Assembly (NCBI GenBank): GCA_041577335.1
Contig: JBFGJH010000017.1
Coordinates: 1 to 53,181 of the forward strand
Length of the DNA: 53,181 nucleotides
Origin: Acidimicrobiia bacterium
Lineage (GTDB): Bacteria > Actinomycetota > Acidimicrobiia > Spongiisociales > JAENVV01
Reading direction: 5' to 3'
This document shows, piece by piece, positions 23,684 to 26,296 of this stretch. How positions within the stretch are numbered: the first letter of the stretch is position 1; every line of letters begins with the position of its first letter. Both the position numbers and the translations under genes were made by a program. The notes beneath the pieces are model-generated. The model did not search any database. It was not told the DNA's origin and saw only the letters and a list, made by a program, of their open reading frames with translations.

Positions 23684-23750
23684 GCGTCCTCGGGGCCCGC
23701 GACGGCCAACGAGGAGGTGATGGAGCTCCATCGGAGCTAAATTACAAATG

Positions 23751-23772
23751 TGTCACTTCGGTGGCGTATAGT
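23751..23772 (+). promoter_or_regulatory. PafBC/RecA-NDp-type promoter, leaderless
   Basis: TGTCAC-TTCGGTGGCG-TATAGT, 7 nt before ATG 23780. Confidence 0.75.
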
Positions 23773-23779
23773 CCCACTC

Positions 23780-24589
23780 ATGGCACTGGAACGCCTTTCA
23801 CCTAGCCGAGCGTCAGACTTCAAGCTCTGCCCGCAGCTCTTCAAATTCAGATCGATCGACAAGATCCCCGAACCCACCACGGTGCATCAAGCGCGGGGAA
23901 CAACTGCTCACCTCGCCCTGCAGAACCTTTACGACCTCCCGGCGAGCGAACGGACGGCCGATGCGCTCTACGACCTGTTCCGCGAGGCCTGGTCTGAGCT
24001 CCGCCACGACGAGGAGTTCTTGGACTTGTTCGAATCGATCGAAGAGGAGCGATCGTGGGGGCTCGAATCGATGGAACTGCTCCGTAACTATTTTGCGGTG
24101 GAGGATCCCACCAAGATCACGCCACTCGATCGTGAGCTCGACATGACGGAAGACCTGGACGGCGGCTTGGTCATTCGGGGAATCCTCGACCGGATCGATG
24201 AGCTTCCCAACGGCGACCTCGTGATACTCGACTACAAGACGGGGAAAGCTCCTCCAGAGCGCTACTCGCTGCCTGCATTCTTTGCGCTCAAGATCTACGC
24301 GCTTCTTGTTCGCCAACGGTTGGGCAAGACGCCGGTCGAGCTCCGCCTCATGTACCTGAACGGCCCGACTCTGTATCGGATTCCTGTCCACGATCGCCAG
24401 CTCGATGCGATGGACCAGCAGCTGCGAGCGCTGTGGCAGCGGATCAACCTCTGCATCGAAACGGACACGTTCCCTCCGCGTGTCAACAAGCTGTGCGACT
24501 GGTGCTCCTATCAGGACCGGTGTCCCGCGTTCGCCGAGGCCCAGTCACAAGCGGAGGCCGAAGAGCTGTCTGTCGCGGCCGTCGGCTGA
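23780..24589 (+). CDS. RecB-family PD-(D/E)xK exonuclease with 4-Cys (Fe-S) motif
   Basis: LSPSRASDFKLCP, RGILDRID, ILDYKTG, CDWCSYQDRCP. Confidence 0.9.
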   Translation: MALERLSPSRASDFKLCPQLFKFRSIDKIPEPTTVHQARGTTAHLALQNLYDLPASERTADALYDLFREAWSELRHDEEFLDLFESIEEERSWGLESMELLRNYFAVEDPTKITPLDRELDMTEDLDGGLVIRGILDRIDELPNGDLVILDYKTGKAPPERYSLPAFFALKIYALLVRQRLGKTPVELRLMYLNGPTLYRIPVHDRQLDAMDQQLRALWQRINLCIETDTFPPRVNKLCDWCSYQDRCPAFAEAQSQAEAEELSVAAVG

Positions 24590-24602
24590 GAAAAACCTGG
24601 GT

Positions 24603-24658
24603 TCGCGAATTCTTTCCATCAATCTGGCTTGCAGAGTGCCCGGCGGAACAAGTACTTT
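24603..24658 (+). promoter_or_regulatory. Promoter of structured RNA 1: TCGCGAA box, -35 TTGCAG, -10 TACTTT
   Basis: TCGCGAA 24603-24609, 19 nt, TTGCAG 24629-24634, 18 nt, TACTTT 24653-24658. Confidence 0.65.
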
Positions 24659-24664
24659 GATCTG

Positions 24665-24818
24665 ACCGTCGCAGGGGAGACCCTGAGGCGGATCGGTGAA
24701 GCTTCGGTTTCATCGAAGCGGCCAGGAGGTCGGGCTTTCGGGTCCGGAGGAATGGTCGCACGGAAGGCCCCGAGGGGACGAAGGTGAGAGCCGGAGTCTC
24801 AGCGGGGTCTTTCGCTTT
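24665..24818 (+). ncRNA. Putative structured ncRNA 1 (~155 nt, four hairpins)
   Basis: Consecutive stems capped by GAGA (24677), UUCG (24703), UUCG (24737) and GAGA (24786); G-U pairs fix the strand; last stem followed by a U-rich tail. Confidence 0.7.
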
Positions 24819-24952
24819 GCGTCGACCCTCGTAGGCTCGGGTCGAGCTGTGCCTCACCTTCGGCTCGGCTTCGTTCTGTTCGTGCGAGCCCTCCGTGCCG
24901 CCGCGCATCCGCCGCACCTCCCTGCTCGGAGATCCTGCTTCGTCGGCGACGC

Positions 24953-24983
24953 ATGACTCACGACTCATGACTCATGACTCATG
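24953..24983. repeat. Tandem heptamer repeat (ATGACTC) x~4.4
   Basis: ATGACTC ACGACTC ATGACTC ATGACTC ATG. Confidence 0.9.
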
Positions 24984-25084
24984 GGTCTTGGGTCGAACCT
25001 ACGGCCTGTCGATCGAGTTCCAACTCTTGGACGGGTTCCAAGGCGTGTCGTAAAAACGATCCCAAAGCGGGGTAATTCGAGGGG

Positions 25085-25159
25085 TCGCGAAAGTTTCCAA
25101 AATCTCGCGAAATCTACCTACGCTCTGAGCTTGATCCCGGGATGCGGCTGTTCTACTTT
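25085..25159 (+). promoter_or_regulatory. Promoter of structured RNA 2: two TCGCGAA boxes, -35 TTGATC, -10 TACTTT
   Basis: TCGCGAA 25085-25091 and 25105-25111, 19 nt, TTGATC 25131-25136, 17 nt, TACTTT 25154-25159. Confidence 0.7.
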
Positions 25160-25166
25160 CCTACTT

Positions 25167-25660
25167 GTCCGGAAGGGGAGACCCAGAAGGAGGCAGGTGG
25201 AAGCCAAAACGGGTTCGCTCGGGATGGTGGAAGTCTGGCCTCGGTGGAAGCCGGCGCCTTCGGGCGACGGGGGAAGTCGGGGAGAATGGATTCTTCGGAA
25301 TCCAGCCCGCTGGCCAGAGATGGTCAGCACGGCGGACGGAGTCGGTGCCCTTCGGGGTAGTGGATCCAGAAGCCCCGGCCTTCGGGTCGGACGCCGAAAG
25401 CAGGGGAATCCTTCGGGAATTCCATGCGGACGGCAGGGGTCTTGGAGACAAGATCTCGCCGGCGAAGAGGTGAGAGCCTCAGAACCGGCAGCGGAGCTCA
25501 ACCCGAGAGGGGATCGAGCGCCGGCTCGGAACAGCCCTCGGGCTGGTACGGGCAAAATGCCCGGTCAGGGGACGACGCCTTCGGGCGGAGAAACCGGCAG
25601 GGTTTGAGAGCCCCGAGAGGGTGGACGCTTCGGCAGATACTCCCTCGGGGTTTCTCGCGT
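25167..25660 (+). ncRNA. Putative large structured ncRNA 2 (~490 nt, more than 12 hairpins)
   Basis: Eight UUCG-capped, one CUCG-capped and five GAGA-capped stems with purine-rich internal loops; final long stem 25606-25656; no credible protein in any frame. Confidence 0.78.
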
Positions 25661-25702
25661 CTGGGGGGTTGATCGAGCGCTCTCCCCGCTAGATTCCTAG
25701 CC

Positions 25703-26296
25703 ATGGGATTTCCCGAACGACACCTCAGCGACAATGAGGAAATCGTCCGACAATTCCGTCCCCATTGGAAAGTCCTCCTCGGCTCGATCATTCTGTTCGA
25801 CGCCATCATGGCGATCGGGATCCTGATCGGTGTGTTCACGAGCCTCACTACCTGGTTGCCGATCCTCATCGCGTTCGGTGTCGGACTGGTCGTCATCGCA
25901 CGCCCGATCGTCGATTGGATGTTCACGCTCTATGTCATCACCTCCGAGCGGGTGATCGTGCGATCGGGATGGCTCAGTAGAAGCGGCAAGGAGATCCCTC
26001 TCGAGGTGATCAACGATGTGGCATTCGACCAAACGGTGGGCGAGCGCTTCTTCCGGTCCGGTGATCTGCTCATCGAGAGTGCCGGCGAATACGGCCAGAG
26101 CCGGTATAGCGACATTCCTCACCCTGAGGAGGTCCAGGCCGTGATCTATGAGCTGCGCGAGGATCGCATTGCCGCGTTGAACACGGGCCGATCGCCGGCC
26201 GATGACTTGGCCACTCTTGCCGAGCTGCACCGGCAGGGCTCGCTGACCGACGAAGAGTTCGCCGACAAGAAGCGCAAACTGCTCGACGAGATCTGA
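25703..26296 (+). CDS. Membrane protein with bacterial PH (bPH_2) domain and C-terminal SHOCT domain
   Basis: Two TM helices; YVITSERVIVRSGWLSR, GDLLIESAG; LAELHRQGSLTDEEFADKKRKLL. Confidence 0.88.
   Translation: MGFPERHLSDNEEIVRQFRPHWKVLLGSIILFDAIMAIGILIGVFTSLTTWLPILIAFGVGLVVIARPIVDWMFTLYVITSERVIVRSGWLSRSGKEIPLEVINDVAFDQTVGERFFRSGDLLIESAGEYGQSRYSDIPHPEEVQAVIYELREDRIAALNTGRSPADDLATLAELHRQGSLTDEEFADKKRKLLDEI

Follow-up and report, generated by a model that had tools for sequence, protein, structure and literature searches.

A long tetraloop hairpin-array RNA gene and its membership in an order-wide family of tandem RNA genes in Acidimicrobiia

ROOL, GOLLD, and OLE are large ornate RNAs of bacteria. 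Acidimicrobiia are abundant in seas, sediments, and sludge, and our literature searches on small or regulatory RNAs of this class found no relevant paper. In other Actinobacteria, the passages on Ms1 in one published survey describe this RNA as a 6S-like rod with extra 5' and 3' hairpins (PMC9130861), the gene of which lies between a HAD-IB hydrolase gene and an oxidoreductase, PH, or other gene from the lists of the survey (PMC9130861, Tables 1-3); these passages do not mention Acidimicrobiia. Here, we describe a locus within a stretch of 53,181 nucleotides (nt) from an Acidimicrobiia bacterium (assembly GCA_041577335.1, contig JBFGJH010000017.1, positions 1 to 53,181, forward strand; hereafter the window), in which an original prediction, made from the DNA letters without database searches, had placed a hairpin-array RNA that we refer to as RNA2. 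RNA2 is a stand-alone, self-contained plus-strand gene for an untranslated structured RNA of ~494-495 nt. Comparison with related genomes places it, as a long member, in an undescribed family of tandem RNA genes that is found across one order of Acidimicrobiia and that we class with the tandem trans-acting structured RNAs. The coordinates of the features of the locus are collected in Table 1.

Direct reading of the sequence located all 14 tetraloops of the original prediction: UUCG loops at 25214, 25259, 25294, 25351, 25381, 25412, 25580, and 25629, a CUCG loop at 25537, and GAGA loops at 25178, 25317, 25445, 25472, and 25505. A script that took as tetraloop hairpins all UNCG or GNRA loops on stems of four or more uninterrupted pairs gave a count of 10 for the plus strand of the segment 25167-25660 and of 0 for its minus strand. 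The 10 are six UUCG hairpins, three GAGA hairpins, and one GGAA hairpin at 25246, the last of which the earlier list did not include; the remaining loops of that list cap 2-3-base-pair (bp) or interrupted stems or, in the case of CUCG, fall outside the pattern of the script. Dinucleotide-preserving shuffles of the same segment (n = 1000) gave a mean of 0.89 (standard deviation, 0.93) and a maximum of 5. Over the whole 3.4-Mb assembly, scanned on both strands as 27,460 half-overlapping segments of 494 nt, the mean was 0.55 and the 99.9th percentile was 4, and the genome-wide maximum of 10 was reached by 25167-25660 itself. The next richest segments, at ~16549-17290 of contig C46 and ~16302-17040 of contig C30, contain 6 each and may be known structured RNAs.

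The predicted fold of 25167-25662 has a minimum free energy of -245.3 kcal/mol (z = -3.4), a stability reached by none of 100 shuffles, and the minus strand of 25150-25680 folds with z = -2.5. At RNA2, the plus strand is rich in G and A (GC skew, ~+0.2; AT skew, up to +0.3), which fits an RNA that uses G-U pairs. The purine-rich unpaired segments noted in the original prediction are real and hold family-wide. The RNA2 region is single-copy in its own genome, which rules out a repeat or a mobile element.

The promoter and the terminator-like stem that had been predicted to bound the unit were both located. The promoter, TTGATC-17-TACTTT, is conserved in kind in 59 related promoters of the family, in which CGCGAAA(A) boxes precede the TTG of the -35 element by 26 and 46 nt, with a spacing of 20-21 bp. 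The corresponding TCGCGAAA boxes of RNA2 are presumed to be binding sites of a transcription factor. The terminator-like stem lies at 25611-25650, where the lower stem, CCCCGAGAGGG / CUCCCUCGGGG, contains a fixed A-C mismatch and carries a variable upper stem with a UUCG cap. It is flanked by GAGAG, which is able to pair with UUCUC, and is followed by the tail TTTCTCGCG. This hairpin matches the family stem exactly and scores 81.2 bits (E = 1.2e-20) with R1, the covariance model of the 3' hairpin.

A BLAST search of RNA2 against 60 relatives matched 42 of them (43/61 counting its own genome), nearly always over the last 60 nt. In an alignment of 34 copies of the 3' hairpin, the lower stem is invariant and retains the A-C mismatch, the upper stem is variable, and 95% of the cells of the structure are paired. 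Both partners change in five pairs, all of which belong to the upper stem, and the covariation is confined to this part. The covariation score was 0.211, compared with 0.143 in shuffles, none of 500 of which scored as high, and every slid control was far lower.

The R1 model had matches in 35 of the 36 genomes sampled from the order, mostly as two to three tandem copies, and gave only eight weak matches (E = 1.6e-6 to 6.4e-4) in 114 genomes of other orders of the class. Families f3 and f11, which BLAST had missed, carry shortened variants: in a sample of one f3 and four f11 genomes, the model matched G023, G031, and G051 and had no match in G192 or G060. Some genomes contain extra copies away from the locus.

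The locus of this genome has the layout of tandem short and long RNA genes between genes for a PD-(D/E)XK nuclease and a bPH-SHOCT protein. In the ~3 kb fetched from each of 39 genomes, the nuclease gene was present in 25, the bPH gene in 25, and at least one of them in 36; at the loci of family f7 (L010, L015, and L019), no bPH gene follows the RNAs within the stretch fetched. The original prediction of a previously undescribed structured RNA is borne out in that RNA2 is structured, independently promoted, non-coding, and without an Rfam match, and is amended in that RNA2 is not a one-off: it is the long paralogue of an order-wide family. In the short units of family f4 (L007, L021, L023, L037, L040, L044, and L048), the third hairpin keeps an invariant GGGGGCCCGCUUUCC and has a C-rich loop, which could be a pairing seed and is absent from the short sister RNA of this genome.

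The body of the RNA behaves differently from its ends. When 49 units were excised from the predicted start to the 3' hairpin, the short ones measured 115-185 nt and the long ones 213-611 nt. The RNA2 orthologues within its own family, f1, are 354, 457, 459, 494, 529, 610, and 611 nt long and show alignable sequence in their terminal parts and tetraloops only. Excluding the last 60 nt, the 49 bodies contain 294 tetraloop hairpins against 25.3 expected, and 39 of the 49 units exceed all 100 of their own shuffles. UUCG accounts for 130 of these loops, GCAA for 49, GAGA for 42, GAAA for 31, and others for 42, and a tetraloop hairpin falls within the first 40 nt in 38/49 units. Unpaired segments other than hairpin loops are 79% purine, most commonly GGA, GAA, and GGAA.

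A seed search by k-mer enrichment in 42 less-redundant units returned only tetraloop words among the enriched 6-mers. Covariation of the bodies by way of a full-length f1 alignment was not possible; because the bodies could not be aligned, the body hairpins are supported by recurrence rather than by covariation. These comparisons show that whole hairpins come and go as the body evolves, with only the 5' hairpin, the 3' hairpin, and the tetraloop-hairpin character being kept, and that the array character is under selection.

RNA2 corresponds to no described RNA family, as the original prediction had held. At gathering thresholds, Rfam 15, which includes 6S, tmRNA, RNase P, SRP, OLE, GOLLD, ROOL, HEARO, raiA, and 6C, gave no match in the whole window, and a permissive search of 24600-26000 with E up to 10 gave chance-level matches only.

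RNA libraries contain RNA2, and the extent of their cover agrees with the predicted transcript. We compared the locus with contigs of four metatranscriptome runs, which came from four different studies and were picked for words shared with it. The contigs were confined to 25183-25634, and none fell in 24400-25155 or 25642-26000. Three of them are near-identical to RNA2, with lengths of 210 and 220 nt (one difference each) and 157 nt (three differences), and one run yielded a 421-nt contig of a relative with a word depth of 1297. With respect to the metatranscriptome coverage proposed as a check on plus-strand transcription, the contigs lie only within the predicted transcript and do not give the strand. 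No contig covered RNA1, the short sister RNA, or the flanks, which, given the assemblies and the choice of runs, says nothing on the expression of RNA1.

The boxes upstream of the RNA genes recur at a small number of other promoters. A weight matrix was trained on the RNA promoters of other genomes, with this genome excluded, and then scanned over this genome, where only nine matches exceeded 14 bits. The four highest were RNA2 (25.6 bits), the rpmH-dnaA spacer (20.3 bits), C106:5180 (18.6 bits), and the region upstream of nrdJ (18.2 bits). The match at C106:5180 is close to the end of its contig and precedes a truncated gene for a membrane protein.

Upstream of dnaA, the exact box was found in the orientation of the gene, 650-1100 nt before the DnaA Walker A motif, in 27/27 genomes, usually as a pair 20 bp apart; the count covers the genomes of the order with enough upstream sequence, with one unpublished genome excluded. 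The dnaA boxes of this genome (contig C18:29249-29330) stand in tandem, 20 bp apart, ~300 nt before the dnaA start, and in family f11 dnaA has a single box in 2/5 genomes. A box also lies within 800 nt upstream of nrdJ, the gene for the B12-dependent ribonucleotide reductase, in 23/27 genomes, the four exceptions all belonging to f11. In this genome, the nrdJ boxes are at C54:3111-3150, and what we take to be NrdR boxes are found downstream of them in the long nrdJ leader. As a control, coding sequence contained one box in 27 x 2300 nt. In four other genomes, six of eight exact tandem boxes are at RNA loci and one is at dnaA, and the reversed control pattern gave none. Literature searches on the box together with dnaA found no description of the CGCGAAA motif.

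Two further promoters of this genome, at C67:11578-11632 and C89:7109-7162, have one CGCGAAA box at the distance from the -35 element that is seen in the RNA genes. Both are overlapped by what is presumably a LexA-type SOS box, TCGAAC-N4-GTTCGA. One precedes an unannotated protein of 240 amino acids, the region of which we take to be a candidate imuA-imuB-dnaE2-type cassette, and the other precedes an unknown protein of 250 amino acids.

The sequence TTT(T)CTCGCG stands directly after the 3' stem (25651-25659 in RNA2) in 16 of 32 distinct copies, and CGCG occurs 4-7 nt after the stem in 24/32. Its reverse complement, CGCGAGAAA, is one of the box variants found before dnaA. Each RNA gene may thus end in a third site for the factor, in inverted orientation, unless the likeness is due to chance; a quick count of distal-box variants at dnaA gave 'none' in 17/28, and the likeness of the tail to the box is only a lead.

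Overall, we tentatively favor, at somewhat below an even chance, the reading that RNA2 is an expressed RNA gene acting as a multivalent protein scaffold or sponge, the synthesis of which is tied to replication or growth through the boxes. A box-binding factor would couple RNA synthesis to the replication or growth programme represented by dnaA and nrdJ. The 3' hairpin would be both an intrinsic terminator and a common protein-binding handle for all paralogues; a protein may recognize it, given that pairing alone would suffice for termination and yet the sequence of the lower stem does not vary. The RNA would then act in trans as a nuclease- and Rho-resistant multivalent scaffold or sponge for a protein, with a capacity set by the number of hairpin and linker modules and not by exact sequence. 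The sponge or scaffold role offered in the original prediction thus remains the best guess, although the loops are mostly generic stabilizing tetraloops. The mechanistic half of the reading is weak because no partner is known.

Several points weigh against this role. A partner protein is neither known nor predicted, and CsrA (PF02599) was not found in the genome at its completeness of 90.75%. Stable RNAs in general have tetraloops and A/G-rich unpaired segments, which are not by themselves evidence of multivalent binding, and the hairpin modules may do no more than stabilize the RNA or protect it from Rho and RNases. The box-binding factor is hypothetical and could be an activator or a repressor, and the boxes, instead of marking a regulon, could be an element common to the upstream regions of promoters. 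A stricter consensus scan for promoters and terminators listed neither at RNA2. Finally, the metatranscriptome contigs are assemblies from runs chosen for holding the sequence, and give no strand, exact ends, or level.

The other readings differ in how the RNA or its locus would act. If the CGCGAAA factor runs a replication/cell-cycle regulon that includes dnaA and nrdJ in this order, the hairpin-array RNAs would be its most strongly wired targets and its RNA arm, serving as abundant multivalent ribonucleoprotein scaffolds, or as sponges for RNA polymerase or for a replication/division protein, in the place of 6S/Ms1 and with another architecture; we consider this unlikely. We give a similarly small chance to a functional counterpart of 6S/Ms1, namely an RNA of high abundance that would associate with RNA polymerase (core or holoenzyme) and adjust transcription capacity to growth phase. 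No 6S RNA was found in the genome with RF00013, and no long intergenic region flanks its HAD-IB gene, which marks the place of Ms1 in other Actinobacteria (PMC9130861). Moreover, Ms1 has extra 5' and 3' hairpins, and 'PH' is among its synteny words in the passages on Ms1 (PMC9130861); RNA2 precedes a PH-domain gene, and the word depth of one contig points to high abundance in one metatranscriptome. However, Rfam gave no match under either threshold, the predicted folds are strings of local hairpins and not a closed rod with a central bubble, and neither a HAD-IB nor a CpaE gene is present in the 12-40 kb part of the window. A polymerase mimic would also not usually come as two to three paralogues that differ so much in length. 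In addition, among the bPH-SHOCT homologues at 22 loci of other classes (with L158 and L160, from unpublished genomes, excluded), no array, boxes, or nuclease neighbor was found, and the 20 that were scanned had no Rfam match. A base-pairing small RNA is likewise doubtful; here target mRNAs would be bound by a short, conserved single-stranded part, such as the 5' leader, a loop, or the tail UUUCUCGCG at the 3' end, and the hairpins would be there for stability alone. The two ends are the conserved parts, the tail is complementary to the CGCGAGAAA variant upstream of dnaA, and the C-rich loop of the f4 short units resembles the C-rich loops that 6C RNA has in actinobacteria (PMC6486639). Nevertheless, no non-tetraloop word is enriched across the 42 units, RNA2 of this genome has no C-rich loop, the 5' leader differs among families, and a body of 350-600 nt far exceeds the needs of a seed carrier.

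Folding or self-assembly into a defined higher-order architecture through GNRA-loop contacts, like that of ROOL, GOLLD, or OLE, appears quite improbable. GNRA loops, a class used in tertiary contacts, make up 155 of the 294 body tetraloops, the internal loops are purine-rich, and the size is ~500 nt; conversely, the number and order of hairpins are not kept even within one family, which argues against one fixed tertiary fold, and there is no Rfam match to these three RNAs. We consider a role in cis or at the DNA level, as a bPH-SHOCT leader, through transcriptional interference, or as a decoy that titrates the box factor with the RNA as a by-product, to be very unlikely. The 3' hairpin ends ~40 nt before the bPH start and overlaps a putative -35 region, the exact tandem boxes of the four other genomes are densest at the RNA loci, and the CGCG-containing tail follows the stem in most copies. 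The bPH gene, however, has its own -10 element at a leaderless distance, no bPH gene follows the RNAs in f7 within the stretch fetched, extra copies are found elsewhere in some genomes, and the array structure is kept on the transcribed strand only. As for a protein-coding origin, an open frame of 208 codons exists at 24981-25607, with a Shine-Dalgarno-like AAGGAGG at 25186-25192, 7 nt before a GUG at 25196. This frame has no Pfam match, and all three plus-strand frames are nearly stop-free in most units because T is scarce. With tblastn against the other units, no consistent frame emerged (E = 2.2 over 26 residues against the same-genus orthologue), and the length differences among orthologues are not multiples of three. 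We therefore reject the coding reading, to which we assign a negligible chance, in agreement with the original prediction that the RNA is non-coding.

RNA2 shares a 1.1-kb gap between the nuclease gene (23750-24589) and the bPH_2-SHOCT gene (25703-26296) with RNA1. RNA1 is composed of four hairpins, namely a 5' GAGA hairpin, two middle hairpins, and a last hairpin (~24761-24813) that is a diverged family 3' hairpin. It folds with -89.5 kcal/mol (z = -4.3) and has the architecture of the short units of other genomes; its 3' hairpin had no match to model R1 at E <= 0.001. In a same-genus relative, the spacer between RNA1 and RNA2 is only ~70 nt, as estimated from hairpin spacing and unit length.

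On the downstream side, TAGATT (25690-25695) sits 7 nt before the ATG of the bPH-SHOCT gene, so that its mRNA is probably separate and leaderless with its own promoter. The PD-(D/E)XK nuclease shows an unusual degree of conservation, with 61-87% identity across the order compared with 40-69% for the bPH-SHOCT protein, and the orientation of its gene in this genus is inverted relative to most other genomes.

Table 1. Features of the RNA1-RNA2 locus, with positions in the window
Feature	Position	Strand	Remarks
PD-(D/E)XK nuclease gene, 279 amino acids	23750-24589	+	Conserved flank of the RNA locus across the order
RNA1 upstream box TCGCGAA (single)	24603-24609	+	26 nt before the TTG of the -35 element
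RNA1 promoter TTGCAG-18-TACTTT	24629-24658	+	Predicted by comparison of family promoters
RNA1, short sister RNA	24665-24815, ~150 nt	+	Both ends inferred
CATGACT-like heptamer run	24953-24985		In the 340-nt RNA1-RNA2 spacer; context only, assigned to neither RNA
Tandem boxes TCGCGAAA	25085-25092 and 25105-25112	+	Spacing, 20 bp; distance to the TTG of the -35 element, 46 and 26 nt
RNA2 promoter TTGATC-17-TACTTT	25131-25159	+	Sigma-A-type, recognized by comparison with relatives
RNA2 hairpin-array RNA	25167-25660, ~494 nt	+	Start inferred 7-8 nt after the -10 element; end inferred in the U-rich tail after the 3' hairpin
5' hairpin GGG-GAGA-CCC	25175-25184	+	Conserved 5' GNRA-capped hairpin of the family
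Conserved 3' element	25606-25659	+	Comparison of copies
bPH_2 + SHOCT membrane protein gene	25690-26296 (ATG 25703)	+	Pfam domains; own -10-like TAGATT at 25690-25695

The analysis adds two things to what had been predicted for this DNA: the boxes are shared with dnaA and nrdJ, and whole hairpins turn over in the body. The RNA family is order-wide and has an unusual plan, in which conserved ends enclose a fast-changing array of extra-stable hairpins, and the family seems very abundant in at least one metatranscriptome, as far as assembled contigs, which do not give the level, can indicate. The upstream element common to the promoters of the RNAs, dnaA, and nrdJ appears to be previously unnoticed and offers a handle for finding the regulator and the role of the RNA. 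If these RNAs replace 6S/Ms1 or form a new protein sponge, they would bear on how growth is adjusted in deep-branching Actinomycetota.

Among the known systems, CsrB/CsrC and RsmX/Y/Z of the Gammaproteobacteria resemble this family in being non-coding and strongly promoted, with several paralogues, variable numbers of hairpin modules, and GGA-containing unpaired segments. They differ in that the loops here are UUCG, GAGA, GCAA, and GAAA, with GGA placed in linkers and internal loops and not in hairpin loops, and in that CsrA was not found in this genome at its 90.75% completeness and no Rfam match was obtained. OmrA/OmrB and PrrF1/PrrF2 likewise consist of neighboring paralogues that share a regulator site and have similar promoters and terminators; these, however, are base-pairing RNAs of 80-150 nt with conserved seeds, whereas the bodies here reach 600 nt and no seed was detected. 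From 6S, the family differs in that RF00013 had no match in the genome and in its predicted folds, which show local hairpins and no rod with a central bubble. Ms1 and 6S are similar in being abundant structured RNAs, and the resemblance extends to a phylum where 6S is hard to find, to terminal 5' and 3' hairpins, and, in some lineages, to a PH-domain neighbor, according to the passages on Ms1 (PMC9130861). Conversely, no rod and bubble is predicted for RNA2, no HAD-IB gene adjoins it, there is no sequence or Rfam similarity, and its paralogues are several and of unequal length; the HAD-IB gene of this genome lies elsewhere than the RNA locus. Membership in the Ms1 family is therefore not supported.

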